Shown here: positions 5,401 to 52,839 of the stretch, piece by piece
How positions within the stretch are numbered: the stretch's first letter is position 1
How the letters are laid out: every line of letters begins with the position of its first letter
NCBI GenBank assembly: GCA_963813715.1
Contig: CAWFAK010000008.1
Location: 602,585 to 666,584 of the forward strand
From: an uncultured Planctomycetaceae bacterium
GTDB taxonomy: Bacteria > Planctomycetota > Planctomycetia > Planctomycetales > Planctomycetaceae
DNA length: 64,000 bases
Direction: 5' to 3'
Notes under the pieces: generated by a model
The model's input: only the letters and a program-made list of their open reading frames with translations
What the model was told of the DNA's origin: nothing
Database searches by the model: none
Made by a program: the position numbers and the translations under genes

Positions 5401-7135
5401 TTAGAAACGCATGCCCTCGGGCACGATGCCCCGCGCGGTCACCGTGTCATCGCGACGGCCGACGATCATGATTTCGGTCGGATCGGAACTGCGGTTGCGA
5501 TCGCAGGAGATCGTCGCGACCAGCTTCCACGGAAAGCACAGGTGCACGATGTCGTTCCCTTTGACCCACATGCAGAAGTAGCCGTCGTTGCCCCACGTGT
5601 CCGGGTCCTGCGCGTCGAGCCGCAGCAGCCGCACGTTCTCGGCGTAGTGCAGCAGGAACAGGTGGTGGGCCGCTCCCAGGCTGACCAGCGATTCCCCCGG
5701 TGGCAGCTTCTGTTTGAGATCCAGGACGGCTTGCCGCGCGTCTTCGCTCGACTTCTGCCGGATGTTGACCACGACGGAGGCTTGGCTCAGCCCGAGAAAG
5801 CAGGCGACGAGGGAAAAGGTCACGGTGAGTGCGGGCGCCGTCATCCGTGCCGAAAATCGCCACACGACGGCCGCGGCCGCGACGCAGGCGACGAGATAAA
5901 CGATGGCCAGGCTCGCCGGCTGCGCCAGAACCGAATCCGCCTTCCAGAAGGAGATGCCGACGAGGACTACGCCGGCCGCGACCATGACGACGGCCAACAG
6001 TCGCTGGTACCAGCAGATGAACGCGCTCCAGCCACCGCGGTCCGATGTCCTGAGAAAGCCTTCCACGACGATTCCGACCAGGCAGGCGACGCAGGGAAAC
6101 ATGGGCATGTAGTAGCGCAAGCTGGCCTGCGGAGCCAGCCAGACCGACGGAAACGTGACGGCGAGGCAAATTGCCAGGTAGAGCGCGTCGTCTCGGAACG
6201 CCCGCAAGCGTTCCCGCACCCGCCGGCTCAGGAGCAGCACAAACCAGATCGACCAGGGGAGCAACGATCCGCCGAGCAACTCGGCCGGGTACGTCACCAT
6301 GTGCACCAACATCGACTTGAGCGACAGCTCGTAGAACCGCGGGCCGACGTCGTGAAAATAGAGCTTCACCGAATCGGCCAGCCCCATCCGCAGCGTGTAG
6401 GGGACCTGCCACACGCCGACGACGGCCAGTCCCGTGACGATGCCGGCCAGATGCGGGAGCGAAAACAGCTCGCGCCACCGCCGCGTCAGCAAGCAGTAGA
6501 TGGTCACCGAGCCGACGAAATAGAGGGGCGCCTGCGGTCCCTTGGTCAACGTCGCCAAGCCGCCCAGCGCGTAGCCCAGGCACCACTTGGTGTAGGGCGA
6601 AACGCCTTTGTTTTCGCACCATTTCCAGACGAAGAGCGAGCCCGACAGAAAGAGCATGAAGAGCGCATCGGTTTCGCCCAGCCGCCCCAGTTCCAGCACT
6701 TGTCCCAGGCTGGCGAGCGCCAGCGCCGCAGGTGAACGCGCCGAACCGCGAGAGAAAGCTCCGCGCGTATCCGTACGTGATGCTCACGATCAGCAGGATC
6801 GCGATGACGCTGGGGATCCGCAGGGCGGCCGCGTCGACCGTGCCGTGGACCGCGCCGATCAGGGCGATCAGCCAGTTTTGCAGCGGCGGACGGAAAAAGA
6901 CCGGCTCGCCTTGGATGCGGGGGACGATCCAGTCGCCGTTCTGCCAGATTTCCCAGGCGATCCGTCCACGACGCGATTCTTCGCCGCGGACCGAAAGCGC
7001 GGTGACTCGGAGACCGAAGAACGAGGCCGTCAGCAGCAGGAGCAGGCCGAACTGCCACTCGAGCCACCAGGGACGCGAGCGGGCCTCCGTGCGACTGGCT
7101 TCAGTGCCGTCTGCCGCAGTCTCCGCTTCAGCCAT
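5401..7135 (-). CDS. ArnT/GT83-PMT-like GT-C glycosyltransferase (frameshift ~6720)
   Basis: GEESRRG..WEI..GDWIVP..GEP..FRPPL, ALRIPS, ETDALF, LTKGP and RYYMP motifs; start uncertain (7135 or 7177). Confidence 0.85.
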
Positions 7136-26062: not shown

Positions 26063-27266
26063 TCAGGGAACGCTCGGCGACGAGCTGCCCGATTTGGGCC
26101 CGAGCACGACCGCGCCATTTGCGAAGCGAAACGTCAGTCCGTGCGGATCGAGCAGTCTGCGCAGAAACTCGGCCGCCGGCAATCGTGGCAGATCGACGGA
26201 CACCTTGCGGTCCAGATCGATGCCCGCGTTCCGCAGTTCTTTCGCGTTGTATTCGAGCGGCAGGCCCTGCTTCTTCAGTTCCTCGAACAGTTCTTGCAGG
26301 CTGACGCCCTCGGCCTGCAGCTTGAACGCTTCCTTCTCGACGGGCAGCGCCGACTTCTTGATCAGCGTCGGCTGAGCATTCTTGGGAGCGCGGAGTGCGG
26401 CGGCCACCATCTCATGCTGCTCGAGTGTACCGCGGACGACGAGCTTGTTGCCGTGAGCTGTCGCGTCGAGCCCCTCGATCAACGAGTGCAACATCCGTAA
26501 TGTTTGGGGCGCCGACTTGCCGCGGAGTGTGTAAGTCCGCTCGACCGCGACGTGTTCCGGCACATGGACCAGGCGCACGCCGGATTCGCGGGGCAGCCAT
26601 TCGAAGGTCAGGTCGAACTGGTTGAGTACCAGCGAGAGGGCCTCCGACGCGGTCGCCTCGGGGATCGTGGCGCCGGCCCACAGATCGTGCGGAATTTGTT
26701 CAAGGCCCGCGATCGACAGGCCGAATTGCCGGCCGATGCGGGATACGATGTCGCTCGGGCGATCGAAGTCGCCCCACGTCACCGTGCTCCGGTGCCCGCG
26801 CAGCTTGGGAGAGCACTTCGGTGCCCACCGCCGCCCGCTCCAATTCCCGCTCGCGGAGCGCGATTACCGTCCGCAGCCGCAGCACGGGGACGGACGGGGC
26901 GACGATCAGACAATTGCCGACCTGGGTGACGCCGAGCTGGATCGACTGGGCAATTTCGTTGACGGCGGCCCGTAGCGGGCGGTCGCCCGTTTCGATCTGC
27001 AGTTCTTGCTCGGGATCGACCCGCCGGTCCAGCAGGATGGCGATTTGCCGCTCGTGGGAGAGCCGCCGCAAAATCGCCCGGAGCGGCACACCTTTCCAGG
27101 ACCCCGAAATCGGCTGCTCGAGGGCCGTCGTGAAGCGGCGAGCGGTCCGATAGTGCGTGGGGAGCGGGTCCGGGAAGAGACTCGTCGGCGCCTCGCTGGG
27201 GGCAGCGGCAGCGGACGCCCACAGGCAAGCGCAGAGCGTCATTTGCCTGTAAAAAGTGGATCGCAT
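26063..27266 (-). CDS. Secreted hypothetical protein with STN/secretin-N-like repeats (frameshift ~26790)
   Basis: Signal peptide; repeats of the type GVPLRAILRRLS..ILLDRRVDP and GVSLQELFEEL..KVSVDL. Confidence 0.6.
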
Positions 27267-27306
27267 GGTTATTCCGTCGCCCAGGACTTCGCAATACAAT
27301 GGTAGC

Positions 27307-29337
27307 ATGCCCGAGCAGACAGGTCCTACGCAGGCGGTTCAGGCGGTCGGCATCGACCTGGGAACGACCTATTCGGTCGTGTCCCATCTCAACGAAAGCG
27401 GCGAACCGGTCACCATCCCCAATCAGGAAGGGGAACTGGCGACGCCGTCGGTCGTGCTGTTCGAGGGAGAGCAGCCGATCGTCGGCACCGAAGCGCTGCG
27501 AAATTCGATCCGCTTTCCGGATCGCGTGGTCGAAAACTCCAAGCGCTTCATGGGTGACGTCGGCAAGCGCTGGTGGATCAACGGCCGCCCCTATGGGCCC
27601 GTCGACATCGCCACGCTGATTCTCAAGAAACTGGTCTCGGCCGCGCAAGATAAGATCGGTCAGATCTCGCAGGCCGTCATCACGGTCCCCGCGCAGTTCA
27701 GCGACGCGCAGCGGCACGCCACGATTCAAGCCGGCCACGCAGCCGGTCTGGAGCGGGTCGACGTCATCAACGAGCCGGTGGCCGCGGCGCTCTGCTACGT
27801 GCTGGGGAGCGAAGGACTCTGGTTTAGCGAGCTGGCGGGTGAGCAGCGGATTCTCGTCTACGATCTGGGCGGCGGCACGTTCGACCTGTCGCTCGTCCGC
27901 TATCGCCAGGACGAGGTCACCGTCATCGCCAGCAGCGGCGATCTGCATCTGGGCGGCATCAATTGGAACGAAGCGCTCGTCGATGCGATTGCCGGCCAGT
28001 TCGCCAAGTCGTTTCGCGACGATCCGCGCACTAATCCGGAAAGCCTGCAGGCCCTGGCGCTCGAAGTCGAGCAGGCCAAGCGCGGACTATCGGTGCGTCC
28101 CCGCGCCGCGTTGACCTGCAACCACGGCGGCCACCGCAAGACGTATCAGGTGGAGCTCGAGCAGTTCCAGCGATTGACCAAGCCGCTCGTCGATCGCACC
28201 GAAGAAATCACGCTCAAGCTGCTCAAGGACAACAAGCTCGGCTGGGCCCACGTCGACGTGGTGCTGGTCACGGGCGGCGCCTCCCGCATGCCGATGATCC
28301 GCGGGCGGCTCAAACAACTGAGCGGCCGCACGCTGAATACCACGCTCTCGCCGGACCTGTCGATCGCCCACGGCGCGACGTACTACGCCGGCATGCTGCT
28401 CGCGAACGACAAGTTCGCGCGCTCGATCCTCACGGAGGATGCCAACCGCCGCCTGGCGAAGGTGAAGCAACAAAGCGTCAACGCGCGCGAGCTCGGCATC
28501 TTGATTCGCGACATGAAGACACAGACCCGCGTGCCCCATTATCTGATTCCGGCCAACACGCCGCTGCCGACCGAATCGACGCAGCAGTTCGGCACGGTGG
28601 TCGAGAATCAGCGGCGCGTGCACCTGGTGATCGTGGAGAGCGGCACGTCGCCCGATCAGCCGTACGTGGTGCTGGGCGACTGCCGGGTCGACGGACTGCC
28701 GCCCAACCTGCCGGAGGGCTCCAAGATCGACGTGACGATCAGTTACGACCCGCAGGCCACAGTGCACGTATCGGCCAAAGATGCGGCCAGCGGCAAGTCG
28801 GCGCACACGGAGATTTTGCGACAGGAGAATATCGTCGCCCAATTGACGTCGGACCCGCGGGTGGCCAGCTCGGATTCGGTCGTGCTGGCGGAGGCAAATC
28901 CCAATCCGTTCAAGAAAACGGGGCCGGGCGCGACCGGGGTCCGCGTCCCCGACCTGGCGAACGATCGCTGGGAGGCGTTCTTCGATCAGACGCCGTCCAA
29001 GCCCATTCCGGTGTGTCACGAGTGCGGACGTCCGCTCGACGAGAAGGGGATATGTCCCACCTGCGCGGCGGCCGCCCTGGCGAAGAGCAAGCCCGTTCCA
29101 GCGGAAAAGTCACCCGTGGCCAAATCCCCCGCAGACCGAACGCCGAGCCGTCCGCAGCCCGGTGCACGAACTGCGGGCGTGAGGCCGGCTCCCAAGCCGC
29201 CGACGCAGGAAATGGTCAAACCTCCGTCCGCCCAACCGCAGCGCAAGCCGCCGTCTCCCGAGCGGCCTAAGCGCAAGCCGTCGTCGGCCCCGCAAGATGA
29301 GGGCGAAGACGAATTCTGGAAGTACGTCGGCGAGTGA
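27307..29337 (+). CDS. Hsp70 family protein (DnaK paralogue) with C-terminal CxxC-CxxC motif and Pro-rich tail
   Basis: GIDLGTTYS, VITVPA, INEPVAAAL, YDLGGGTFD, VTGGASRMP; CHEC...CPTC. Confidence 0.92.
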   Translation: MPEQTGPTQAVQAVGIDLGTTYSVVSHLNESGEPVTIPNQEGELATPSVVLFEGEQPIVGTEALRNSIRFPDRVVENSKRFMGDVGKRWWINGRPYGPVDIATLILKKLVSAAQDKIGQISQAVITVPAQFSDAQRHATIQAGHAAGLERVDVINEPVAAALCYVLGSEGLWFSELAGEQRILVYDLGGGTFDLSLVRYRQDEVTVIASSGDLHLGGINWNEALVDAIAGQFAKSFRDDPRTNPESLQALALEVEQAKRGLSVRPRAALTCNHGGHRKTYQVELEQFQRLTKPLVDRTEEITLKLLKDNKLGWAHVDVVLVTGGASRMPMIRGRLKQLSGRTLNTTLSPDLSIAHGATYYAGMLLANDKFARSILTEDANRRLAKVKQQSVNARELGILIRDMKTQTRVPHYLIPANTPLPTESTQQFGTVVENQRRVHLVIVESGTSPDQPYVVLGDCRVDGLPPNLPEGSKIDVTISYDPQATVHVSAKDAASGKSAHTEILRQENIVAQLTSDPRVASSDSVVLAEANPNPFKKTGPGATGVRVPDLANDRWEAFFDQTPSKPIPVCHECGRPLDEKGICPTCAAAALAKSKPVPAEKSPVAKSPADRTPSRPQPGARTAGVRPAPKPPTQEMVKPPSAQPQRKPPSPERPKRKPSSAPQDEGEDEFWKYVGE

Positions 29338-34715: not shown

Positions 34716-35711
34716 CTAGTCCAGACGCTTGCCCTGCAGGTCGTCGATGTTCAAAACGTGCTTGGTTCTCACGAACCGATCGGGATCTTCGCGGAAGGTT
34801 TGCCGCGACTTTTCACTGACGAACAGGTACAGCTCGCCGTCGAAGAACGCGGCATAACGGATGTCTCCGGAGACCGCGCGGTCCGCAATATCCAGGATCA
34901 CCGGATCGCAGCCGAGGACCTGCGGAGCGTAGCGATCGGGGCCGTCTTTGAACAGCTGCAATTCCTCGGCCGACGTCATGTAGTACGTGACCCCTTTGTG
35001 CTCGTACTTCCAATGATCGTCACCCCGCATCCATTTGCGGTCGCCCACCAGCGCGACCGGGCTGAACCCACGGAGGCCGAGCGACGCACCCGCATGCCGT
35101 AGCGGGCCGGGATGTCCCACGCCCGGCGGGGACGCGGACGCAATCATCGGTCGATCTTCGATTGTGCGTCGGACCGGATTGGGAGCGATGGGGGCTGGAG
35201 TCGGCCGAGATAGGGGCGCCGGTTCGCGAAGGGCGGGCTTGGACTGCATCGCGATATGGGTCTTATGCGTCTGGGCGAATCGCGAGTCGATCCGCGCGAT
35301 CAGCGAAACATAACGCTCGCGATCCCGCATCCCCGACGAGCGGTCCATCACGAAGCCGCTGGGGTCGAGGAAAATGTCCGTCGGCAGCGATTCGACGCCG
35401 AACCGTTGAATCAGGTCGGGGCGCTCATCGGCGTCAACTTTGACGGCGACGACGGACACGTCGAGTTGCCGGAGCACCGACGGATCGCCGAGGACGTCGC
35501 GGTTCATGATCTGGCAGGGACCGCACCATTTCGCGTGGAAGTGCACGAGCAGCGGCCGGTTGAGCCGCCGGGCTTCGGTTTCGGCCGAGCGAAAATCATG
35601 TTTCCAGGTCGGCGAGCCGTATTCCGTCCCCACGGCGAACGAGGTGGCCGTGGACACTGCGCAAAAGAAGACACTCCAGAATTTGAGAGACTGCATTCGC
35701 AGCGCCTTCAT
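34716..35711 (-). CDS. Secreted thioredoxin-family protein with a C-terminal YHS-like region
   Basis: Signal peptide, WCGPC, SLPT; GFSPV..W..G..Y..F..P.RYAP repeated twice. Confidence 0.85.
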   Translation of the reverse strand: MKALRMQSLKFWSVFFCAVSTATSFAVGTEYGSPTWKHDFRSAETEARRLNRPLLVHFHAKWCGPCQIMNRDVLGDPSVLRQLDVSVVAVKVDADERPDLIQRFGVESLPTDIFLDPSGFVMDRSSGMRDRERYVSLIARIDSRFAQTHKTHIAMQSKPALREPAPLSRPTPAPIAPNPVRRTIEDRPMIASASPPGVGHPGPLRHAGASLGLRGFSPVALVGDRKWMRGDDHWKYEHKGVTYYMTSAEELQLFKDGPDRYAPQVLGCDPVILDIADRAVSGDIRYAAFFDGELYLFVSEKSRQTFREDPDRFVRTKHVLNIDDLQGKRLD

Positions 35712-36093: not shown

Positions 36094-38035
36094 TTAGACG
36101 TCGAGGTCGTCGGCGAACGACGCCTCTTCCATGATCACCCGATAGCGTTCGGACGCGTCTTTTCCCAAGAGCTGAGAGAACGTTTTGTCCGTTTCCACCT
36201 GACTTTCGATCTCCGCCTGCAGGAGCACGCGGGCCTTCGGATCGAGAGTCGTTTCCTTGAGCTGCTTGGCGTCCATCTCGCCCAGACCCTTGAAACGGTA
36301 GACCTCGAATTTGCGATGACTGCCGAGCCGCAGCAGGATCTCTTCCTTGGCGGCATCGTCCTGCGCGTAAAAGGTCTCGCTCGAGGTCACAATGCGGTAG
36401 AGGGGCGGCTGGGCGATGAAGAGTTTGCCCTGTGAGATCAGCTCGCGCATGTGGCGGAAGAAAAAGGTCAAAAGCAGCGTGCAGATGTGATAGCCGTCGC
36501 TATCGGCGTCCATCAGCAGGATCACGCGGCCGTAGCGGAGTTTGTGGATGTCGAACTGCGCTCCGATACCCGTGCCGAGCGCTTCGATCAGATCCTTCAC
36601 TTCTTGATTTTCGAGAATCTTACTGAGGGACAGGGCCTCGGTGTTGAGGATTTTCCCGCGCAGCGGGAGTACGGCCTGCGTGCGGTTGTCGCGGCCCATC
36701 GCTGCTGTGCCGCCGGCCGAGTCTCCTTCGACGATGAACAGCTCCGTCTTCGCCGAGTCGGTCTGCCGGCAGTCGAGCAGCTTGCCGGGAAGATTCGTGC
36801 GGCGGGAACCGGGCGACTTGCGGCGAACTTCGCTGGCGGCGTCGCGACTGGCGAGCCGTGCCCGCGCAGCCAGCACGATGCGGCCGATGATCGCGTCGGC
36901 GATCGAGGGATTGTTGTTGAGCCACGTTTCGAGCCCCGGCCGCACAATTCCTTCGACGAGGCCGGTTAACTCAGGATTGTTGAGTCGCTCCTTGGTCTGC
37001 CCCTGGAACATGGGGTCCGGATGGAAGACCGAGAGGACGCCGATGGCCCCTTCGCGGACGTCCTCGCCCGTGATACTCAGGCCTTTGTGCTTGATGTCAT
37101 GCACTTCGAGGTAGCTGCGGACTGCCCGCACGATGCCGTTGCGGAAGCCGTTCTCGTGCGTGCCGCCGGCGTGCGTGCGAATGCCGTTGACGTAGCTGCG
37201 AATATTTTCGTCGGTCGACTCGCTCCAGCGAAGGACGACTTCGATCCGCGTGGTCCCTTCGTCTTTTTCGGTCGCGTAAATCTGCTCGTGGCTGGGACGC
37301 TTCTGGCTCTCGGTCGTCAGTTTTTCGAGGAAGCCGGCAATTCCCTCCGGGTGCACGAAGTCGATTCGCTCGTTCTTCGCCTCGTCGACAAGCGTGATCC
37401 GCAGGCCGCCATGAATGTAAGTGATGTCTTCGAGATGAAGGCGGATCGTCTCGACGTTGAACTGCACGCGGCGAAAGATCTCGTCGTCGGGCCGGAAGAA
37501 GATGCTCGTGCCGTGCCCGCGGAAAGGGCGAACCTTTTTCACTTCGGTGGTCGGTTTGCCCCGCTTGTAGCGCTGGCTCCATTCGTAGCCGTCGCGATGG
37601 ACGGTCGCCTCCAGCTCGATCGATAGCGCGTTGACCACCGACGCGCCGACGCCGTGCAAGCCGCCGCTGCGGAGGTAGTTTTTGTCCGAGAATTTGCCGC
37701 CGGCGTGCAGCGTCGTGAGGATGACTTCGAGTGCCGACTTCTTGATCTTCGGGTGCTTGTCGACGGGAACGCCGCGGCCGTTGTCGCTGACGGTGATCGA
37801 CGTGCCATCTTTATGCAGTGTGACCGAAATGTGATCGGCCGCCTCGGCCAAATATTCGTCGACAGAGTTATCGACAATTTCCCACAGCAAGTGGTGCAGG
37901 CCCCGCGCATCGACGCCGCCGATGTACATCGACGGACGCCGCCTGACGGCCTCGAGCCCTTCGAGCACCTCGATGTCGGCCGCGGCGTAATTTCCGCTCG
38001 GCTTGAGGCGCGTTGTTCTTGGATCCAGTCGCCAC
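36094..38035 (-). CDS. parE: Type IIA topoisomerase B subunit, topo IV ParE-like (N-terminal frameshift ~38000)
   Basis: IEVLEGLEAVRRRPSMYIG, EIVDNSVDE, GGLHGVG, EGDSA, PLRGKILN, DADSDG and RFKGLGEM motifs. Confidence 0.85.
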
Positions 38036-38040
38036 TCGCC

Positions 38041-40506
38041 CTAACCCTTCGTCGCAGGTTTTTCTTCAAATTGGTCCCAGTCCACCAATTGGATCGGCGG
38101 CGGGACGATCTCTTTGAATCCAGTCCGAGTGCTGGTCTTGATGCCTTTGCCGCCCCGGGCCGTGACGCCGTATTTCATTTGTCCAAAGCTGAGCGGCTTG
38201 TCGTTGTCGTTGATGACGTGCAGGCAGTCCGACGGGCGGGCCAGCTGAATCGCGCCCAGCACTTCGTCGTCGGGTGCCAGCTTGATTCCCCGTACGCCCT
38301 TGCCGGGTCCACCGAGAATCGGCACGTCGCCGATCTTGAAGTGGATCACGCGGGCGTCGCGAGTGGCCAGAAACATCGTCTCCCCCTCGCTCACCAGCTC
38401 GACGAAGATCACGCGATCTTTCTCGCGGAGCCGGCAATAGCGGCGGCCGGCCTTCGTCGACGGAGCCCGAAACGCGCTGAACGAGAGTTGCATCACCTGG
38501 CCGAGACGTGTCGCGATCAGCAAATAGGGCCGCGGCGGCTGATTCTTGCGGACGACCCCGTCGGCGGCCGTGAACCGCGGATCGGTGCTCGTCGCCCAGA
38601 TCGGCCGGGCGCCATCGCCCACGCGGACAAGTTTGGAGATCGGATCGCCGTAACCCGACGACGCCGGAACCTGGTCGATCGGCAGCGTGAACGCCACGCC
38701 GTCGCTGGAGAAGACGACCACGTTTTCCAGCGTACTCCCGGGAACGACGGCCAGCACGGCATCGCCGTCGCGGACCCGTGTGCTCTCGACCTTCTGCAGC
38801 CGGCCGACGCGCTTGAGCCAGCCGTCGCGGGTGAGCACGACGTTCGTGTTCTCGCGGACGATATAAGCCTGCGGATCGAACTCGGTGACCTCTTCTTCGG
38901 AGCCGATGGCCGTGCGGCGATCGTCTCCGTATTTCTCGGCGATCTCCTCGAGCTCGGTTTCGACGACTTTCCACAAGCGGGCCTTCGAGGCGAGGATCTT
39001 GCGAATCGACTCAGCCTCAGCCCGCTTTTCCTTCAGCTCCTCGAGAATGCGATCGATTTCCAGCGTGGAGATGCGGTACAAGGCCAGCTCGAGGACCGCT
39101 TCCGTCTGCTCTGCGTCGAGCGGGAAAGCCTTCATCAGTTTCTCGGCCGCGTCCTGCTTTCCCGAGCTGCCGCGAATGATTTTGAGGGCCAGGTCGAGTC
39201 CCTTGAAGATGATCGCAAAGCCTTCGAGCACGTGAATGCGACGCTCGAGCTGACGCAGCTGGTACTCGAACCTCCGCGTCACCGTCTTGAAGCGGAAGTC
39301 GAGGAAGTGACGCAGCAGCTCTCTCAGGCTGAGACGCGCTGGGACGAGGGCCCCGTGTTCGTCGGGCACCAGGCAGGTCGTGTTGAAGGCGAAATTCTGC
39401 TCGAGCGAGGTGTGGCGATACATGTACGCCATGATGGCCTCGGGGTCCGCCCCCGGCTTGATTTCGAGCGTCAGTCGGAGCGGGTGCTTTTCGCTGCTTT
39501 CGTCGGCGACGCTCACCAGCTGCGGCAGCTTCCGCGCGTTGATGATGTCGCCGATCGCCGTCAGCAGCGGCCCCGTCTCGACGCCGTAGGGAACGGACGA
39601 CAACACGATCCGCGTGGTCGCCTCGGACTTGCGATCCTTCTCCAGCTTCCATTCGCCGCGGACTTTGATCGAGCCGCGCCCTTCTTCATACGCTTCGCGG
39701 ATCGAACGGCGATCGGTGACGATGCGGCCGCCGAGCGGAAAGTCGGGGCCTTTCACGTATTTCATCAGCTGCGCCACGGTGGCGTCGGGCTCGTGGATCA
39801 GGTGGACGCAGGCTTTGACTGCTTCCCGCAGATTGTGTGGCGGGATGTTCGTCGCCATGCCGACGGCGATCCCCTGCGTGCCGTTGACGAGCAGGTTCGG
39901 GAACCGCGCGGGGAGGACGATCGGTTCTTGTTTCGACGCGTCGTAGGTCGCGCGCGTATCGATCGTCTCGAACCGCAGCTCGTTCATGAGCTGGTCGGCC
40001 ACCGCCGTCAGCTTCACTTCCGTGTAGCGGGCGGCGGCCGCGGGCAGCCCGATGATCGAGCCGAAGTTCCCTTGGCCAATCACCAGTGGATAGCGGAGGC
40101 TGAAATTCTGGGCCATCCGCACGAGAGCGTCGTAAACGGCCATGTCGCCGTGCGGGTGGTAGTTGCCCGTGGTATCGCCGCAAACCTTGGCGCTTTTGCG
40201 AGTTTTCGCATTAGCCGTCAGCCCCAGATCGTGGTGCATGACGTACAAAATGCGGCGCTGCACGGGTTTCAGACCGTCGCGGGCGTCTGGCAGAGCCCGC
40301 GACGTGATGACGGAGAGCGCGTAATTGAGGTATCTGCGGCGAGTTTCCTGGCTGAGCGAGACGTACGTGATCTGGTCGCCGTCGTCCCCGTTTGCCCCGT
40401 TGTTTCCGGTGCCGGGCCGGCGAGCGGGCGGGCTACCGGCGTTGGCGTCGGCGTCCGGATTGGACGCCGACGGATCGCCGGCTGATCGAGATCCCTTCTT
40501 GGACAA
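38041..40506 (-). CDS. parC: Type IIA topoisomerase A subunit, topo IV ParC-like
   Basis: RALPDARDGLKPVQRR, YHPHGD, catalytic AAARYTE; no GyrA-box at the start of the CTD. Confidence 0.85.
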   Translation of the reverse strand: MSKKGSRSAGDPSASNPDADANAGSPPARRPGTGNNGANGDDGDQITYVSLSQETRRRYLNYALSVITSRALPDARDGLKPVQRRILYVMHHDLGLTANAKTRKSAKVCGDTTGNYHPHGDMAVYDALVRMAQNFSLRYPLVIGQGNFGSIIGLPAAAARYTEVKLTAVADQLMNELRFETIDTRATYDASKQEPIVLPARFPNLLVNGTQGIAVGMATNIPPHNLREAVKACVHLIHEPDATVAQLMKYVKGPDFPLGGRIVTDRRSIREAYEEGRGSIKVRGEWKLEKDRKSEATTRIVLSSVPYGVETGPLLTAIGDIINARKLPQLVSVADESSEKHPLRLTLEIKPGADPEAIMAYMYRHTSLEQNFAFNTTCLVPDEHGALVPARLSLRELLRHFLDFRFKTVTRRFEYQLRQLERRIHVLEGFAIIFKGLDLALKIIRGSSGKQDAAEKLMKAFPLDAEQTEAVLELALYRISTLEIDRILEELKEKRAEAESIRKILASKARLWKVVETELEEIAEKYGDDRRTAIGSEEEVTEFDPQAYIVRENTNVVLTRDGWLKRVGRLQKVESTRVRDGDAVLAVVPGSTLENVVVFSSDGVAFTLPIDQVPASSGYGDPISKLVRVGDGARPIWATSTDPRFTAADGVVRKNQPPRPYLLIATRLGQVMQLSFSAFRAPSTKAGRRYCRLREKDRVIFVELVSEGETMFLATRDARVIHFKIGDVPILGGPGKGVRGIKLAPDDEVLGAIQLARPSDCLHVINDNDKPLSFGQMKYGVTARGGKGIKTSTRTGFKEIVPPPIQLVDWDQFEEKPATKG

Positions 40507-40928
40507 CTCACCCTCCTAGACGCCGACTCACCTCGCGGGCCACTGATTGAGTATGGCGGCGGCGGCGGACTTGGCAATTTGGCCGGATTTTAGCGATTGC
40601 ACCGGCGAAGTGCAGCGCCCGATCGCAGAGGTGGTTTTGGTCCCCCCAAGAATTGCCCGGCGATTATGCATTTCCTGCCTGGCGAGCGAGCCCGTTTGTG
40701 GCGGCGGCTTAGCGATTTTTCCGGTTGTAAGGTTTAACCGGGACGTCGATTCCTGGGGCACGACCGCTCCCGCCGTTACGGCCCGAAAAACTGATTCGTG
40801 CGATTCGATTCACCCGAATCTTGTATTGCTCACGTGAGGACAGATCGCCCTCGCCCGGACGGCCTGTGCATGGATGTTACTCGCCTCCGAGCGTGACGGC
40901 CGAGTGGAAATGATTCAGGGAGGAATCG

Positions 40929-41582
40929 ATGGTCCGTACCACGCTTCGAGCGGCTGCCTGCACGGCGATCGTGTCGGCGTTTTCGCTCAATTGCTGCTTC
41001 GCTCAGTCTGACTCGGCGTCTCTCTCTCCGGCGGCCAGCGCGCCGGCCTCAGCTGCAAGCCGGAGAGTTTCCTCCCAGCCCGAGGCGGTCCCCAATCCGC
41101 CGGGTTATGCCTACGACCGGACGGTCCAGCAGACCGGCGGCGACGTGCAACACAACGTGGTGGTGCATGCGGCCGGCCCGGTTCCCGCTCCGCTCTATTT
41201 GCCACCCACGGCGCCCAACATTACGCCGAACGGCTACCCGTCGTTGAACGCTCCGATGTATCCGTGTCCGCTGCCGTACATCCCGTACCAGGTCGGCGCC
41301 ACGTTCATCACCAACCAAGCGTTCGATCCGCACGAGATGCTGTACCCGCACACGTATCGCTCGCTCTATCCCCCGTACTACTACGAAGTCTCCGGGGCGT
41401 GGAAGGTCTTTCCCTGGGGCGTCGGCCAGACCGAACACTGGAAACTGCGTGGCACGTACGTCTCGGTGAAATACCACTCGTCGTGCGGCCTGTTCAGCGG
41501 TTGGTGCCCGCCGGCTCTGCCGAAGAGCGGCAATCCGCCCTTGTGCCAGACCTGGTCCGGCCAGCGGTGGAGCGAAGAGTAG
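40929..41582 (+). CDS. Secreted Pro/Tyr-rich hypothetical protein (cluster gene 1)
   Basis: GGAGG RBS, signal peptide, aromatic-rich C-terminal domain. Confidence 0.8.
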   Translation: MVRTTLRAAACTAIVSAFSLNCCFAQSDSASLSPAASAPASAASRRVSSQPEAVPNPPGYAYDRTVQQTGGDVQHNVVVHAAGPVPAPLYLPPTAPNITPNGYPSLNAPMYPCPLPYIPYQVGATFITNQAFDPHEMLYPHTYRSLYPPYYYEVSGAWKVFPWGVGQTEHWKLRGTYVSVKYHSSCGLFSGWCPPALPKSGNPPLCQTWSGQRWSEE

Positions 41583-41688
41583 TGCGCCGCCTCGAATTGC
41601 CTTGCTGACGCGTGCCGACGGCAGTTGGCACGCAGTCGGCAAGCGACCTCGCCTGTTCGCCGCGATTTGCACTCAGAAAGCTTCTGTT

Positions 41689-42099
41689 ATGACGACCCCT
41701 TACTCCAAAGCGCTGTCGACGATCGTCTGTATCGGTGCTCTGGCCGGCCTGGCCCTGAGCACGGCTCACGCCGGCGACTGCGAAAGCGATCGCGTCCTGC
41801 AGTACTACGAGCGTTGCTACGGCCCAAACGGTTACTGCATCAGCTGCGATCGGTGTTGCCGAAATGCGCAGGCCAACTGCCCCGACGAAAATGCTTGTTG
41901 CTGCCAGCGGAGCTGCTGCTACCGAAAGCTGACCCAGTTTTTCGGCCCCGGCAGTTGTCCGCCGTCCCGCTTCTGGGACATCTGTGTGTATCGAGCCTGT
42001 TTTCCGATGAGTCCTTGGTATTCCAACCCGCGAGACGGGATTCACTACCCCGCCTACGGATCGAAGTCACCGGGCTGCATGCCGGCTAGAAACTACTAG
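41689..42099 (+). CDS. Secreted Cys-rich hypothetical protein (cluster gene 2)
   Basis: Signal peptide ending AHA; 16 Cys in the mature part; PWYSNPRD motif. Confidence 0.75.
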   Translation: MTTPYSKALSTIVCIGALAGLALSTAHAGDCESDRVLQYYERCYGPNGYCISCDRCCRNAQANCPDENACCCQRSCCYRKLTQFFGPGSCPPSRFWDICVYRACFPMSPWYSNPRDGIHYPAYGSKSPGCMPARNY

Positions 42100-42146
42100 A
42101 GCGATGCACGGCGGCTCGCGGCCTCTCAGAAAGTTCAGGGAAGAAC

Positions 42147-42803
42147 GTGATGTTCACACGCAATAAAATTGCCCTCCCCGCTATGGCGATCGCCCAGACG
42201 ATCGCCGCACAAATCACCCGCAAGTCCGAACTCCTGACGGCCGCCGCCGTATGCGGATTGCTGCTCTGCGGCAACGCCCGCGGTGAAGACTCGCCAGGAG
42301 CGATGCGGATCAGCGCGGCGACCACCGACCAGGCCACTCCGGCGCCTGCTCCCGACGCGGCCCCTGTCGGCCGTGTCGGCTTGGGACACGGCGAAGCCTG
42401 CGACGGCGCCGCCTGCAACGGCGCTTGCGGACCGGCGCAGTCGCACTGCGGCATCTGGCACACCTGCCTCTGTGGCGGTCCGGACCACGGCTACGGCTGC
42501 CGGTTCCTCGACTATCACTGCTACACGATGACCTACCCGGTCAACCCGTGGTACTACGATCCGCGCGACACGCGGGTCTACGCAGCCGTCGGTTTCGGCG
42601 CGCCGATGACGGTTCCCCTGGCTCCGACCGTGCAGACGCAGGTCAACTACGGATGGGGCATTCCGGCCAGCCGTATCACGCCGATCTCGCGAGTTGCGTA
42701 CCAACCCGGCGCGATGATGGGCGCGATGGCTCCGCTGGCCGCGCCCTACGGTGCCCCGGCCGCGCCAGTTCCCCCCGTGATGCCCACTGCTGCTCCTCGT
42801 TAA
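42147..42803 (+). CDS. Secreted Pro/Tyr/Cys-rich hypothetical protein (cluster gene 3)
   Basis: Signal-like N-terminus; CDGAAC and PWYYDPRD motifs. Confidence 0.8.
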   Translation: MMFTRNKIALPAMAIAQTIAAQITRKSELLTAAAVCGLLLCGNARGEDSPGAMRISAATTDQATPAPAPDAAPVGRVGLGHGEACDGAACNGACGPAQSHCGIWHTCLCGGPDHGYGCRFLDYHCYTMTYPVNPWYYDPRDTRVYAAVGFGAPMTVPLAPTVQTQVNYGWGIPASRITPISRVAYQPGAMMGAMAPLAAPYGAPAAPVPPVMPTAAPR

Positions 42804-42878
42804 CGGTTTAAGACGAGCGCGAGTCGACAACCGCTTCGCCGATCGATCCGAATGCTCTTCGATTTCAGGAATCACGCG

Positions 42879-43622
42879 ATGAAAGCATGGACCAAAGCTT
42901 GCTGGGCCCCGTTGATCGCGGCGAGTTTCGTCGCGGCGGCCCAGGCCGACGACATGGCCGTTGTGCATATTTCGGATCGGCCGGCCCCCGTGCCCGATCC
43001 CGGACCGGCCGCGGCGCCCGCCGCCAACGGCGCGGTCGCCGGCGCCCCCTGTGACGGCGCCGCCTGCGGCACCGGCGCGTACGCCGGAGGTGGCTGTTTG
43101 TTCAACCCGACGCGCGGCTTTCAGCCTTACGCGGCCGCACCCGTCAATCGCGATGCGATCGTCTACTACCGGTATTGGCCGGATAAGTGGTACGGCCAGC
43201 CGGGCTTCAACCTGCATCCGATGTTCGCGCAGGTCTACATGCCCACCGATACGACGCAACTCGGCTTCTACTACGCCCGCGTGCCCCAGTGGATGCCGAA
43301 CCCCAACATGTATCCGCCGGCCCCGCGGCCCGAGGATTGGCACCGTCACGTGATCTATGCCGGCGGCGGTGGTGGCGGCGCCTGCAACACTGTGACCGCG
43401 GGAGTGGCCGTCGGCCCGGCCGCCGGACCGAGTGTTGGTGCGGGAGTCGAAGTCAACAGTCCGAGCCCGGCTCCCGCTCAGCCGTCGAACAACTGGCCGA
43501 CTGTGCCGGCCGCCCCGAGCTCGCCTCCCCCGGCCGCTCCGGCACCCCATCCGATGGCGCCCAGTGCGATGAACCAAGGCAGCCAAATCCAGCCTGCCTC
43601 TGCCGACGGCGAGCGCCACTAG
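42879..43622 (+). CDS. Secreted Pro/Tyr/Gly-rich hypothetical protein (cluster gene 4)
   Basis: AGGA RBS, signal peptide ending AQA; CDGAAC and YYRYWPDKWY motifs. Confidence 0.8.
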   Translation: MKAWTKACWAPLIAASFVAAAQADDMAVVHISDRPAPVPDPGPAAAPAANGAVAGAPCDGAACGTGAYAGGGCLFNPTRGFQPYAAAPVNRDAIVYYRYWPDKWYGQPGFNLHPMFAQVYMPTDTTQLGFYYARVPQWMPNPNMYPPAPRPEDWHRHVIYAGGGGGGACNTVTAGVAVGPAAGPSVGAGVEVNSPSPAPAQPSNNWPTVPAAPSSPPPAAPAPHPMAPSAMNQGSQIQPASADGERH

Positions 43623-43706
43623 GTCCTCGACGACATTCGCAACGGCATTTCCAGCAACTAAGCCTCCCCGAAGAACTGACTCGCGAGCAAGTGCTCGCTA
43701 CTTTCC

Positions 43707-43741
43707 AACGCAGCGGAGCATTTGGCTCCGCTGCGTTTTTT
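43707..43741 (+). terminator. Intrinsic terminator closing the four-gene cluster
   Basis: AACGCAGCGGAGC-ATTTG-GCTCCGCTGCGTT followed by a T-tract. Confidence 0.85.
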
Positions 43742-43928
43742 GTTGGACCACCTGCATGGGAGACGACCGCCCAACTGGGCGGGCCAATTCGATCTTTGAG
43801 CACAGCCAACCGCGCACTACGATATAAGCGGCGCGACCGGGGAAGCTCGCGAGCAGGAACGTCGGCCGCAACTGTCCCCGGAACCTCGCGGTTTGCCGTT
43901 TTTCAAGTTCGTGCGTGAGATGAAAGCA

Positions 43929-44546
43929 ATGCAGCAGTCGATTCGCGGCCTGTCACGGCGGATCCTGCCAATGTTGCTGCCGGCCGCCGTCCTGTTTTCC
44001 TGCATCGGTTGCGATCAGTGGACGAAGAGCCTGGCGACCGAACACCTCCGCCAGGCGCCCGCGATGTCGTTCCTGGGTGGCACCGTGCGGATCCAATACG
44101 CGGAAAACCCGGGCGCGTTTCTCGGTGCCGGCTCGCAGTTGGCCCCCAACGCACGGTTCGCGATCCTCGTCGTCGTGAATGCCGTGTTCCTGGTGCTGAT
44201 CGCTTCGCTGGTCTTCTTCAAGCGTCCGGCCGGCCGCGTGCAACATTTGGCGGTGGTGCTGCTCCTGGCGGGGGGCATCGGCAACTTGATCGACCGCCTG
44301 TTTCATGGCGGACTGGTCATCGACTTTCTCAACGTCGGCATCGGTCCCGTGCGAACGGGGATCTTCAACGTCGCCGACATGGCCATCATGGCGGGCTTCG
44401 GCATCTTGATCCTCTATCGCGGCCCGAGTGCCGACACCTCCGCGACCAGCGGCACCGGTGATCGTTTGCCAATGGGCGATCGTTCGCCAACGGACGATCG
44501 CAGCGAAACGGCCGCCGCGCCCACCTCGCCGCCGATCGGCGCCTAG
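43929..44546 (+). CDS. lspA: Lipoprotein signal peptidase II
   Basis: DQWTK, NPGAF, GGIGNLIDRL, VIDFL and FNVAD motifs. Confidence 0.93.
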   Translation: MQQSIRGLSRRILPMLLPAAVLFSCIGCDQWTKSLATEHLRQAPAMSFLGGTVRIQYAENPGAFLGAGSQLAPNARFAILVVVNAVFLVLIASLVFFKRPAGRVQHLAVVLLLAGGIGNLIDRLFHGGLVIDFLNVGIGPVRTGIFNVADMAIMAGFGILILYRGPSADTSATSGTGDRLPMGDRSPTDDRSETAAAPTSPPIGA

Positions 44547-45724: not shown

Positions 45725-46392
45725 TCATTGTGGTCGACCGAAAAGGGCATCGCGCCGATGTGAAGAAAATCGTTGGGTTGCCAGCCGAAGCCCGATCTCC
45801 GTATCGGCCCCCTCCGGAAAACCCAGGCCGTCGGCTTCATTGACGATGGTTTTGAGTCGCAAGCTGATGATGTCGTCTTTGGCCTTCTTGCGTTTCTCGA
45901 TTTGATCGCGGAGCTTCTTGACCCGAGTTTCGACGTCGGAGATTTGCTTCTCGCGCCGCTGCATGTCGCGCTCGAAGGATTTGTCGAGGAGCTGCGAGAT
46001 TTGCTTCGTCAGGGCCGCTTTGTCGGTGTCATTCTTCGCCGACTTGAGCTTGCCGATTGCCTGGTGCAAGGCTTCGAGGTCCTTGATTTCCGCCTCGGAC
46101 TGGGCGTGAGTGTGGTGCCGTCCACGCAGGCCGAGCCCACCGCGGCCGCCACCAACTCCGAAACTGCTCCCGAATGCGGCGGGCGGTGCCGGGACATCCG
46201 GTGCGGCGGGCGGATCCGCCGGTTCGCCGAGTGGGTCCTGGTCGGCCGATGCTCCGGCGGGAGGTTGTGCGAGCGGGTGAGGGTCGTCGCCCGCTGGCGG
46301 CGGGCCCGGCAGTTGTCCCCAGACTTGCGAGAGGGTCAGCAGCGTGCCGGAGCCGAGCACGAAGGCGAACAAGGCGCGTCGAGCCGTTTGAT

Positions 46393-46396
<4 letters not shown>
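45725..46396 (-). CDS. Secreted coiled-coil hypothetical protein (3' end uncertain)
   Basis: GAAAGGAAG RBS; signal MNQTARRALFAFVLG; Pro-rich linker followed by a Lys/Glu-rich helical region. Confidence 0.7.
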
Positions 46397-47969
<1,573 letters not shown>

Positions 47970-47980
<11 letters not shown>

Positions 47981-49764: not shown

Positions 49765-52700
49765 CTAACGGTTCGCTTCGCCCGGCTTCCGTTGCTTGAG
49801 CAGATAGGCCAGCAAATCGTTTAATTCTTGCGGCGAGAGTTGCTCAGCGACGTTGGCAGGCATCGGGGAGAGTTTGGTCTGCGTCCGCTGCTCGATCTTG
49901 CTCTTGGCGATACGCTGCTCCGCGCCTTTGCTGTCGACAAGCACCAGGACCGGCCCCTCTTCGCGAACGACGATGCCGTTGGCCACCTGGCCGTCGTCGA
50001 GGGCCAGGATCGTCGCGCGAAAGGCGACGTCGACATTGCGATTGGGATCGAGCACGTCTTCCAATAGCCGTTCGACGCCGCGATTGCCCGCCCCGTCGAG
50101 CTGCGGGCCGACGCGATTGCCTTTGCCCGCAATTTGGTGACAGGCCGCGCAGCTCTTCTGAAAGACCGCCACGCCACGCTCGGCATTCGGGGACGCCTTG
50201 GCGAATTCGGCCGCCCGCGTGGCGATCAGCTGGTTGATCCGCTCGTCGAACTTCGGCAGGTTCTCCAAAAGTTTCGCCGCGCGATCTGCGAGCGCGGGCC
50301 CGGCCATCGCTTGCAGCCGCGCCCGCAGGGCCGGGTCGGCCAACAGTTGCGGTGAACAGTGCCCCTTTTCGACGGCCTCGATCAGGGCGGCGACTCCGTC
50401 GCGGCTGCGGGCCAGCGTGTCGACGACCGAAGTCGCCAGTTGCTGCGGTGCGACCTGCAACAAGGCGACCAGAAACGCCCGGCTGGCCGGATCGTTCGTC
50501 TGTCGCAAGGTCTCGACCACGCTGCAGCGGATTTTCAGCGGACTCTCGGCGTTTCGCACAGCCACTTCGATGGCCGGCAGCGCGGCCGCCGCATCGATCC
50601 GCACGAGCGCCTCGGCCGCCGCCGGCTGGAAGCGTTGCTGGCGCGTCGTGTTCAAAATCTTCACCAGCACCGGCACGGCCGACGTGAGCTGGGCTTCCTC
50701 GGCCAGGCTGATACCGGCGCGAAGGCTGCGGGCGTTGTGCCCCTCGAACAGGCTATGAGCGACCGCGTCGGCCCAGCTCTTGAGTTCGTCCGGAATGGCC
50801 GCGCCCCGTTCGCGGCTCGCGCGGAAGAGCGACTTGAGCAAGCCGGCTTCGAGGTCGCGATCCTTGCCGCGATACGCGAGCGCCATCCGATCGACCTCGG
50901 GCATCCGGGTAACTTCGACGGTGTTGGCGATGTAAGCCAGCGAATCGGCCAAACGCGGCGTCACGTGCAAATTGGCGGTCAAGAAGGCAAGCGCCAGCCC
51001 CGCGGCCGCGGGCGTGTGGATGCCCATGCAAACGTCGATCAGCCGCGTCTGCGTATCGGCCGCGGCCTGATAGTGTTGCCGCAATTCGTCCCACTGATGC
51101 CCCGACGCGCTCTGCACGGTATTGCGTAGCGCGATCCGCGTCACGTGGACGAGCATCGTGTCGGACGCATCGGTGGTCCGCCACAGCTCGATCAGTGGGT
51201 CGATGTTCCGCAGGTCCGGATGTAGTCCGAGCACTTCGGCCGCCGCCCGCCGCACAAACGGATCCTCATCGGTCAGTTGTGCGCTCGCCAGAAATCGCTC
51301 GTATTCGCCCCACCGCATTTCGCCAATGGCCTTGATCGCGTGAATTCGCACCAGCGGATCGGCATCGCGGACGGCGCGCCGTGTCAGTTTGCTGTCGAAT
51401 GCTCCCAGCCGCTGCAGCACCCAGATCGCGTGGACTCGGGCGGCGGGGCTGCGTGTGGTTTCCAGCGCATTGAGAATCACGGGGATCGCCGGCTGGCCGA
51501 TCCGATCGACCAACTCGTGCGTCGCAAAAGTGCGAGTGGGCAGATTCTCGCTGGAGAGCGAAGCCACCAGCGTCTCCACCGAAGCTCGCGAGAGGTCCAC
51601 CATCTTCGGCTGCGGCGTCCGGCCGTCCTTGCCGACGTACGAAATTCGCCAGATGCGGCCCCGAGTTTTGTCGCGGAGCGGATGCGTCAGCGGCACCTCG
51701 TAGTGGCCGATGATGCAGTTGTAGAAGTCGGCCACGTAGATCGAACCGTCCGTCGCCAACTGCAAGTCGACCGGCCGGAACCACAAGTCGTCGCAAGTCA
51801 TGAAGTCGGGCAGCTCGACGCCGAAATGGGTCGACCCGTGCGTCGTGATGCGATCGTGATTGATGATCCCCGTCACCGGGTTGCCGAGAAAGATCGTGTT
51901 GCGATACTCGGCCGGAAGCGGGCCGCCGGTGTAATAGACGATGCCGGCAATGCCCGTCGAACCGTGCTCGTGCGTCATGATCTCTGGCGCGAAGCCGAGT
52001 CCGTCGTGCGGCTTGCCGAAGCTCGAATAACAGCCGCCGCGCAAGACGAGCATGCCGGGCCGGCTGTGACAGTCGGCCGTAAACATGTCACCGCGAGGAT
52101 CGAAGGTCATGCCGAACGGATTGACCTGGCCGAACGAGAATTGATCGACGTGCGAGCCGTCGATCCGCACGCGAAACGTGTTGCCCGACGTCATCGTGAT
52201 CTGCGAACCGTCGGACGCTTTGACGGTCGAGGTGTTCGAGTAGCCGTGGCAGCAGTAAACCCAGCCGTCGAGCCAATAGTTGAGACCGTTGACCATCCCG
52301 TGCGTGTCGCGATGGCCGAAGCCGCTGTACGCGATCTCCCGCGTGTCGGCCACGCCGTCGCCGTTCTTGTCGAAGAAGCGATAGAGGTTCGGCACCGAGT
52401 AGCCAAAAACGCCGCCGGGAATCGGCGTCACGCCGATGGGGATCGACAGTCGGTCGGCAAAGACCGCAACCTTGTCGGGAATGCCGTCGCCGTTGGTGTC
52501 GACGATCCGCCGAATCGTATCGCGGCCGGGCGCTCCCTCCGGATGGGGGAACGGATATTCGTACGACTGCGTGACGTAGAGCCGCCCGGCCGAATCGAAC
52601 TTCATGTTGATCGGCTTGACGATGTCGGGCTCGCTGGCCACCAGCTCGATGCGAAAGCCCGGCGGCAGGTGAAACATCCGCTGTTCTTCCTTCGCCGTGT

Positions 52701-52839
52701 GCGGCGGCGTGCGAGCGATCAAGAGGTCGGCATCATCGCGGGCGACGGCAGGAGTCGACACCGTCGGCCATGCGAAAGTGAAGAGGGCAACCGTCACGCC
52801 GCAAAGAATTCGATTACGGCAAAACGAACGAATCAACAT
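49765..52839 (-). CDS. PVC-type heme-binding CxxCH protein (beta-propeller dehydrogenase-like domain, HEAT repeats, cytochrome c)
   Basis: LPPGFRIELVASEP, WFRPVDL, DFYN..IGHYE, RGRIWRI, CAACH, GPQL and SPMP motifs. Confidence 0.92.
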   Translation of the reverse strand: MLIRSFCRNRILCGVTVALFTFAWPTVSTPAVARDDADLLIARTPPHTAKEEQRMFHLPPGFRIELVASEPDIVKPINMKFDSAGRLYVTQSYEYPFPHPEGAPGRDTIRRIVDTNGDGIPDKVAVFADRLSIPIGVTPIPGGVFGYSVPNLYRFFDKNGDGVADTREIAYSGFGHRDTHGMVNGLNYWLDGWVYCCHGYSNTSTVKASDGSQITMTSGNTFRVRIDGSHVDQFSFGQVNPFGMTFDPRGDMFTADCHSRPGMLVLRGGCYSSFGKPHDGLGFAPEIMTHEHGSTGIAGIVYYTGGPLPAEYRNTIFLGNPVTGIINHDRITTHGSTHFGVELPDFMTCDDLWFRPVDLQLATDGSIYVADFYNCIIGHYEVPLTHPLRDKTRGRIWRISYVGKDGRTPQPKMVDLSRASVETLVASLSSENLPTRTFATHELVDRIGQPAIPVILNALETTRSPAARVHAIWVLQRLGAFDSKLTRRAVRDADPLVRIHAIKAIGEMRWGEYERFLASAQLTDEDPFVRRAAAEVLGLHPDLRNIDPLIELWRTTDASDTMLVHVTRIALRNTVQSASGHQWDELRQHYQAAADTQTRLIDVCMGIHTPAAAGLALAFLTANLHVTPRLADSLAYIANTVEVTRMPEVDRMALAYRGKDRDLEAGLLKSLFRASRERGAAIPDELKSWADAVAHSLFEGHNARSLRAGISLAEEAQLTSAVPVLVKILNTTRQQRFQPAAAEALVRIDAAAALPAIEVAVRNAESPLKIRCSVVETLRQTNDPASRAFLVALLQVAPQQLATSVVDTLARSRDGVAALIEAVEKGHCSPQLLADPALRARLQAMAGPALADRAAKLLENLPKFDERINQLIATRAAEFAKASPNAERGVAVFQKSCAACHQIAGKGNRVGPQLDGAGNRGVERLLEDVLDPNRNVDVAFRATILALDDGQVANGIVVREEGPVLVLVDSKGAEQRIAKSKIEQRTQTKLSPMPANVAEQLSPQELNDLLAYLLKQRKPGEANR

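Follow-up and report, generated by a model that had tools for sequence, protein, structure and literature searches.

We analysed a stretch of 64,000 nt from an uncultured Planctomycetaceae bacterium (the window; unless a locus handle precedes them, coordinates are positions within this whole stretch). In particular, we examined a run of four co-oriented open reading frames (ORFs), g1 to g4, that is transcribed divergently from a pair of type IIA topoisomerase genes. A first-pass annotation made from the sequence alone had described this run as one operon of four related, secreted, Cys-rich proteins that might build a structural fibre, stalk or envelope system. The ORF listing bears out all four genes. 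With their immediate neighbours, and with the protein families A, B and C that are defined below, they are arranged as follows:

36094..37968, minus strand: type IIA topoisomerase B subunit (second set), 623 amino acids (aa), Pfam DNA_gyraseB, Toprim and HATPase_c
38041..40506, minus strand: type IIA topoisomerase A subunit (second set), 820 aa, Pfam DNA_topoisoIV (E 8e-134)
40507..40928, no strand: divergent intergenic region of 422 bp between the topoisomerase A subunit and g1
40929..41582, plus strand: g1, family A, 217 aa (ORF call)
41689..42099, plus strand: g2, truncated family B paralogue (B2), 136 aa (the ORF opens at 41602, probable ATG at 41689)
42150..42803, plus strand: g3, family B, 217 aa (ORF call; alternative start 42147)
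42879..43622, plus strand: g4, family C, 247 aa (ORF call; alternative start 42852)
43707..43737, plus strand: intrinsic-terminator-like hairpin, 13 pairs (9 G-C), loop of 5, T-run
43893..44546, plus strand: lspA (signal peptidase II), Pfam Peptidase_A8

The genes are separated by gaps of 106, 50 and 75 bp (g1-g2, g2-g3 and g3-g4), and a strong Shine-Dalgarno sequence, GGGAGG, lies ahead of g1 at 40918-40923. The closing terminator claimed by the first-pass annotation was found as the hairpin that starts 84 bp 3' of g4. It stands out by its stem length only and not by the number of such sites, of which a terminator scan returned 2 compared with 3.3 +/- 1.6 in shuffled sequences. Contigs from four metatranscriptome libraries (4 runs from four studies) lie on all four genes with 92-100% identity, and contigs from the RNA libraries bridge each of the three gaps; being assembled contigs that may include carried-over DNA, they cannot establish a single transcript. 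Together with the shared strand, the short gaps and the one terminator they make it probable that g1 to g4 form one transcription unit, i.e. the proposed operon.

Three protein families at the locus

The relatedness of the four proteins held only in part. Genes g2 and g3 are paralogues: the gapless segment quoted for them is 13/32 identical and the proteins match with a BLASTP E of 2e-8. In the alignment g2 lacks the C-terminal half of the g3 core, i.e. it keeps the FP-x-SPWY-x-NPRDG half and misses the VPLAP...NYGWG-PSSR half. The count of 16 Cys among its 108 mature residues was reproduced. Also as stated, g3 and g4 share the motif CDGAAC (42399-42416 and 43050-43067), which is encoded by an exact 15-nt match at 42402 and 43053 that has no other copies in the window. 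By itself this likeness has a BLASTP E of 0.17, and the DNA identity is probably what the codon bias of a GC-rich genome would produce. An N-terminal segment common to g3 and g4 had been noticed as well. It corresponds to a motif right after the signal peptide that families B and C have in common (profile-profile probability 96%, E 3.4e-9, 13 columns). The C-terminal cores of g3 and g4 gave no alignment to each other in the profile-profile comparison, and the YYRYWPDKWY segment of g4, previously likened to the g2/g3 core, is not significant in either BLASTP or profile comparison. For g1, comparison with g2, g3 and g4 revealed no relationship (BLASTP E 0.36-6.3; hhalign probability 4-11%). Instead of four paralogous subunits these comparisons indicate three unrelated families, namely A (g1), B (g3, with g2 as B2) and C (g4), with g2 being to all appearance a B duplicate restricted to the genus of the window.

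The N-termini of g1 to g4, read by eye, consist of a basic n-region, a hydrophobic stretch and an A-x-A-like site, in agreement with the signal peptides described before, and the same pattern was seen in every aligned family member. AlphaFold2 (AF2) places a helix at residues 2-19 of g1, and an N-terminal helix is also predicted for the fused form of B and C that is presented below. Judging from these signal-peptide-like N-termini, the proteins are probably secreted. None of the four has a Pfam or NCBIfam match at E<=1 or a PDB sequence match, which supports the earlier description as non-enzymatic proteins outside any named family. Pfam likewise matched 0 of 73 family A members, 0 of the set of 67 (one marginal DUF6520 match) and 0 of 31 family C members; no Pfam accessory domain was found in the 15 longest family A members. 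An ESM Atlas search returned only unnamed Planctomycetota clusters. UniProt-derived names label a Gimesia A protein as "YXWGXW repeat (2 copies)" and a Thalassoglobus C protein as "Stigma-specific protein Stig1"; Pfam at E<=0.01 reproduced neither, and both names were discarded.

Each family has a recognizable architecture. In family A the signal peptide is followed by a Pro/Ala-rich linker, which varies, and then by the conserved core (residues ~100-197, 41226-41519), in which P114, P134, E136, L138, Y139, H141 and V180 are invariant. In the family B protein g3 the signal peptide, a GAMRISA motif (42294-42317) and CDGAAC precede the conserved core, which spans residues ~120-185 (42507-42704); the family shows one invariant residue, R175, and 20 nearly invariant columns. 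The family C protein g4 carries the signal peptide, a MAVVHISD motif (42954-42977), CDGAAC, a conserved core at residues ~72-160 (43092-43358) that contains MPTDTTQLGFYY-x-VPQW, and a Pro/Ala-rich tail. Its family has the invariant residues P122, T125, Q127, G129, P136 and W138. Cys-richness, originally regarded as a property of the proteins in general, does not hold for the families: the number of Cys per protein ranges from 0 to 35 in family B and from 0 to 28 in family C.

The N-terminal motif is of the GVVRISD type, and a strict form of it is present in 17 of 27 B proteins and 13 of 27 C proteins. In one genus (g34; loci L026, L027 and L030) the A proteins, three in number, bear GVVRIVSH directly after the signal peptide. 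Since A proteins of this genus carry the motif as well, it behaves as a movable handle common to the subunits. We also considered GVVRISD as a general sorting signal. A regular expression run over all ORFs of the window's genome gave 24 matches, none of them behind a hydrophobic stretch; this test was insensitive, with the window's own motif copies being too degenerate for the expression. A degenerate DNA pattern for the motif in 5 complete relatives gave 7 matches, of which 1 was the C gene of the module and 6 were apparently due to chance. Given the low sensitivity, the sorting-signal idea was dropped.

Distribution and the fused form of B and C

The order A-(B2)-B-C was identical in all 35 related Planctomycetaceae loci checked by tblastn on the fetched sequences (L002-L004, L006-L015, L019-L038 and L128, where of C only the first 25 residues lie within L006). 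Among 19 related loci compared (L001 being the window), B2 occurs only in the 10 from the window's own genus. In two loci of this genus, L019 (7026-7584) and L020, the A or B frames are interrupted, with split tblastn matches and internal stops, which may reflect assembly errors or decay in metagenome-assembled genomes. The family A profile matched 282 of 288 Planctomycetaceae genomes that are at least 90% complete and 73 of 74 genera, mostly with one match each, and an exhaustive profile search found 565 family A cluster representatives at E<=1e-3. By exact sequence the genera Lacunimicrobium, Thalassoglobus, Caulifigura, Gimesia and Planctopirus could be named, in each case for a "hypothetical protein"; family members are further associated with Schlesneria and Planctomicrobium. 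All 72 homologues of g3 are likewise named "hypothetical". In an even sample of the phylum, in which only 8-11 first-look candidates were scored per genome, family A was found in 24 and the fused form in 23 of 401 genomes. Only 3 of about 103 families were positive: Planctomycetaceae, Pirellulaceae and the family that includes Thermogutta. The module is lineage-specific, and in Planctomycetaceae it is near-universal and single-copy.

In the two other families the module consists of two genes (L016-L018), a short A and one protein in which the B core is followed by the C core (fused BC). Homologues of this protein number 947 at E<=1e-3 and are mostly 119-130 aa long. It is present in 107 of 121 sampled Pirellulaceae genomes and in 81 of the 85 high-quality ones, the genera by exact look-up being Blastopirellula, Roseimaritima, Crateriforma, Stieleria, Novipirellula, Pirellula and Aureliella. 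It also occurs in Thermogutta (family f8). The minimal fused BC has no conserved Cys column, neither the GVVRISD motif nor the linker, and a C-terminus of the form ...YYVRGPW, while His is conserved to at least 90% in PWHG and HQF. The occurrence of B and C cores in one chain of other genomes is the classical Rosetta-stone situation. Gene fusion elsewhere is an established predictor that split partners form a complex. By this argument the products of g3 and g4 should bind each other because their cores are fused elsewhere. As in Rosetta-stone heterodimers, B and C are adjacent genes in one group (Planctomycetaceae) and one polypeptide in another (Pirellulaceae and Thermogutta). What differs is that the split B and C each gained a signal peptide, an N-terminal motif and a Cys-rich linker, and that the B half was duplicated once more as g2.

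Structure predictions were made for g1 and for the fused protein. For a fused BC of 125 aa (alignment of 82 sequences) AF2 reached a mean predicted local distance difference test score (pLDDT) of 84.5 and a predicted template modelling score of 0.65. The strands of the model come from the B-like part (58-62, 68-73 and 79-83) as well as from the C-like part (118-122), which suggests that B and C cores form one small beta-rich domain. In a Foldseek search of the PDB the best E for this model was 2.9, with no fold assignment; exhaustive structural alignment with VIA-align returned 0 of 48,161 representative PDB chains at Z>=2, and profile searches of PDB sequences with A2, A3, A4 and A6 were empty but for one match at E 0.8. 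The predicted fold may therefore be new, where the lack of a match is no proof of novelty. In the g1 model (73 sequences) only residues 141-182 (41349-41474), a long beta-hairpin, are predicted with confidence; elsewhere confidence is low. A complex prediction on the A, B and C cores with our own alignments had a score of 0.01 (mark 0.32) and is evidence neither way.

A type II topoisomerase as divergent neighbour

The most unexpected result concerns the topoisomerase on the other side of the promoter region. The genome of the window possesses two type IIA sets, the adjacent A and B subunit pair beside the module and an unlinked gyrA (contig C16) with a gyrB-like gene (contig C5). The unlinked copy on C16 has the canonical GyrA box QRRGGKG, the window copy TARGGKG, and the B subunit of the window has 623 aa compared with an 888-aa ORF for the other copy. 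ParC is distinguished from GyrA by the lack of the GyrA box; on these differences in box and size we refer to the window pair as second type IIA topoisomerase and not as ParC/ParE. Of 27 Planctomycetaceae loci whose flanks are long enough, 14 have a type IIA pair next to gene A in divergent orientation, corresponding to 9 of 16 genera.

Outside this group the divergent neighbour can be a different enzyme. In L016-L018 it is subunit B of topoisomerase VI (Topo VI), and Topo VI-B was found in 86 of 121 Pirellulaceae genomes. When the position tables of fused BC and Topo VI-B were compared by hand for the 78 Pirellulaceae genomes that possess both, the two genes lay within 2.1 kb on one contig in 72, nearly always divergently. 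Of the six exceptions (G731, G733, G774, G777, G793 and G801) four have the genes on different contigs. A further 29 Pirellulaceae genomes contain the module and gave no Topo VI-B match; here the type IIA A subunit was divergently adjacent in all 11 loci fetched (L129-L139), followed by the B subunit in 10 of the 11. Of the individual genomes compared, G012 and G016, both Planctomycetaceae, possess two PF00521 genes and lack Topo VI, whereas in G026, G031 and G036 a single PF00521 gene is accompanied by Topo VI. Because Topo VI-B and type IIA loci show the same arrangement, the slot beside the module, where it is occupied, belongs to the second type II topoisomerase, whichever kind this is. 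In Pirellulaceae the slot looks like an in situ non-orthologous displacement of the decatenase. Such displacement and supercoiling-coupled divergent promoters are known general principles. The present case resembles the former in that non-homologous enzymes, Topo VI or a second type IIA topoisomerase, occupy one slot by the same neighbour; we know of no described case in which a secreted module is the fixed partner in a displacement. Topo VI has been listed for Planctomycetes in the literature, but none of the titles and abstracts returned by a search deals with this neighbourhood.

The intergenic regions themselves contained one recurrent element. The Shine-Dalgarno-type word CAGGGAGGGA (<=1 mismatch) was the only 10-mer common to 10 of 18 divergent intergenic regions, and Rfam gave no match at the gathering score in the divergent intergenic region. 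The topoisomerase link may represent shared regulation, supercoiling coupling or a frozen synteny with in situ displacement.

In the genetically tractable Planctopirus limnophila the orthologues are Plim_0107 (A), Plim_0108 (B) and Plim_0109 (C), which adjoin the topoisomerase genes Plim_0106 (A subunit) and Plim_0105 (B subunit). The transposon insertion indices given for this species in PMC10632474 (supplementary file 5, sheet 'Fig. S1') are 0.123, 0.107 and 0.131 for Plim_0107, Plim_0108 and Plim_0109, 0.0031 and 0.0043 for Plim_0105 and Plim_0106, and 0.167 and 0.148 for the flanking genes Plim_0104 and Plim_0110; the stated cut-offs are 0.013, 0.022 and 0.25. From these indices, as listed there, it follows that the module is dispensable in laboratory culture while the topoisomerase is not. 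Dispensability of Plim_0107-0109 in culture neither proves nor excludes a surface structure. No paper mentioning the locus tags Plim_0107, Plim_0108 or Plim_0109 was found in a literature search.

A possible secreted complex and its alternatives

With the gene order, the fusion, the predicted fold, the distribution and the dispensability as its footing, the reading that we favour takes the locus as the Planctomycetaceae form of a lineage-specific secreted module whose products assemble into an envelope complex of A with B·C; we give it about an even chance. In such a complex A, B and C would be exported by the Sec pathway and their signal peptides cleaved. B and C would then associate through their C-terminal cores and thereby rebuild the single domain of the fused homologues, and A would join as third subunit, adding its long beta-hairpin and a Pro-rich segment. 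The strand-like GVVRISD motif and the variable Cys/Gly-rich linkers, both confined to Planctomycetaceae, may serve to tether the complex within the periplasm or cell envelope, or to cross-link it there. In the most speculative step, divergent transcription with the second type II topoisomerase would place the module under a regulation shared with chromosome decatenation, late in the cell cycle.

Several observations weigh against this picture. The interaction of B with C is predicted from gene-fusion logic, and the localisation from a reading of the N-termini. With a mean pLDDT of 60 the AF2 model of g1 by itself is poor, and A may be largely disordered or depend on a further partner. The topoisomerase is not adjacent in 7 of the 16 Planctomycetaceae genera examined, i.e. 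adjacency is not obligatory, and conserved synteny alone is no proof of co-regulation. A motif search in the 18 intergenic regions found no shared DNA motif besides the ribosome-binding site, and one RNA-library contig crosses the divergent promoter (40400-41129), such that the libraries may contain carried-over DNA. The other neighbours vary among the loci scanned and give no functional hint.

The structural role that the first-pass annotation had preferred would make the proteins a disulfide-cross-linked extracellular fibre, stalk or pilus-like heteropolymer; the N-terminal strand motif could then act as donor strand or zipper between subunits. Secreted, non-enzymatic, Pro/Tyr/Gly-rich proteins suit such a polymer, and so does a short strand-like N-terminal motif in B, C and sometimes A that could mediate subunit contacts, next to the Cys-rich linkers of g2 and many B and C proteins. 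A model of A that consists of a long hairpin only is expected if folding occurs on assembly, and non-essential orthologues are what one usually finds for appendages. The fused form argues in the other direction: its predicted structure is a small closed domain and neither a repeat nor a solenoid, and the motif and linkers are missing in Pirellulaceae and Thermogutta. Because the Cys count varies and no Cys is conserved in the fused form, disulfide cross-linking cannot be the core mechanism. Planctomycetaceae, Pirellulaceae and Thermogutta differ in stalk formation and some lineages are without stalks; a module that is near-universal in the first two groups and also found in Thermogutta would not track the stalk-forming genera, and the proposed link to stalks is not supported. 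Strand-complementing pili and fibres (chaperone-usher, type IV) resemble the module, with its small and probably secreted proteins encoded in a row, in having small secreted subunits, with a counterpart in its short strand-like N-terminal motif. They differ in their N-methylation motif, Ig-like pilin domain, usher, chaperone and secretin, which the module lacks, and the predicted fold of fused BC is found in none of the PDB representatives. For type IV pilins, PF07963 gave no match in g1 to g4, while the same scans found it in DUF1559 neighbours, such that the model works; no usher, chaperone or secretin gene was seen among 37, 20 and 50 neighbouring ORFs scanned, and no pilin methylation motif or sortase-type gene near any scanned locus. 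Altogether we consider such a polymer quite unlikely.

Instead of a complex, the module could comprise independent small periplasmic proteins, with selection acting on the divergent arrangement itself, either since transcription of a strongly expressed neighbour sets the local supercoiling at the decatenase promoter or through one shared regulator. Coupling by twin-domain supercoiling is an established principle. The arrangement outlives the swap of the topoisomerase to a non-homologous enzyme in Pirellulaceae, the genomes compared have either two type IIA sets or one set plus Topo VI, a strong Shine-Dalgarno sequence precedes gene A in 10 of 18 loci, and the topoisomerase genes are essential where the module is not. 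An operator-like motif conserved in the 18 intergenic regions was not found, though, and the module is retained in the 7 genera that lost the adjacency, which implies that its proteins are under selection in their own right. A purely cis-acting role also fails to explain the strong conservation of the cores, and we regard this possibility as unlikely. A third option, periplasmic metal- or redox-handling proteins that bind metal ions by Cys-rich linkers and conserved His/Glu, could account for the P-H-E-x-L-Y-x-H segment of family A, in which E136 and H141 are invariant and H135 nearly so, for the His of PWHG and HQF in fused BC and for CxxC-like motifs in many B and C linkers. Thioredoxin-family genes nearby, in the window and L013, could be added to this list, but these are 2 loci only. 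Planctomycetaceae B proteins have Y and S/R in place of the His found in fused BC, the Cys are not conserved, and no metal-binding family or PDB relative was detected; we take this option to be very unlikely.

The secreted complex of A with B·C can also be compared with the nearest described planctomycete envelope proteins, which, as far as the reported fractions go, are the YTV proteins (PF07639) of planctomycete cell-wall fractions (PMC12673574). The proteins of the module, which are probably secreted, resemble the YTV proteins in being restricted to Planctomycetia, Cys-/Pro-rich in some members and without enzymatic domains. In contrast to YTV proteins, g1 to g4 and the 73, 67 and 31 family members have no PF07639 match, and the cores of the module are built from aromatic/Pro motifs without conserved Cys. 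A wider version of the favoured complex would be an undescribed secreted assembly with a new small fold, ancestral to Pirellulales and Planctomycetales and coupled to chromosome decatenation, whose divergent unit outlived a change from Topo VI to a type IIA enzyme and which acts on the envelope when the daughter cell (bud) separates; taken as a whole we find this quite improbable.

The machinery by which planctomycetes divide and build their envelope is largely unknown, and most of their conserved lineage-specific genes lack an assigned role. Within two orders the module belongs to the features that are most faithfully conserved, and its gene arrangement persisted through a swap of topoisomerase type. 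The analysis provides three defined families, a binding prediction from the split and fused forms, and named orthologues in P. limnophila; as these are non-essential in a tractable species, they lend themselves to deletion, localisation and structural studies. A functional link to decatenation would represent a new connection of chromosome topology with envelope biology. If it is only frozen synteny, the locus would be a clean example of in situ non-orthologous displacement.

Single loci provided a few additional observations. In L027 the next gene 3' of family C, read in the same direction (3748-6162, minus), encodes an animal-haem-peroxidase domain with RTX repeats; this fits Tyr cross-linking of Tyr/Pro-rich proteins and was seen in one locus only. 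In one genome (L036, 663-2585, plus) a separate gene at a distance of about 3 kb from the module encodes a true YTV-repeat protein (Pfam E 7e-41), and a TPR protein of ~830 aa is a neighbour in L015, L018 and L036. Of the 9 own-genus loci that extend far enough, 8 have lspA after family C; in none of the other genera was this seen.

Within the window, long ORFs run antisense to the topoisomerase gene (37654-40485, plus, 943 aa) and to g3/g4 (42135-43619, minus, 494 aa). Their translations, rich in Arg, Gly and Ala, look like shadow frames of GC-rich DNA and not like genes. Further genes of the window encode an Hsp70-family protein (27256-29337), a thioredoxin-like protein with a YHS domain (34716-35711), a Ser/Thr protein kinase (45725-47980) and a DUF7133-HEAT-cytochrome c protein (49765-52839).

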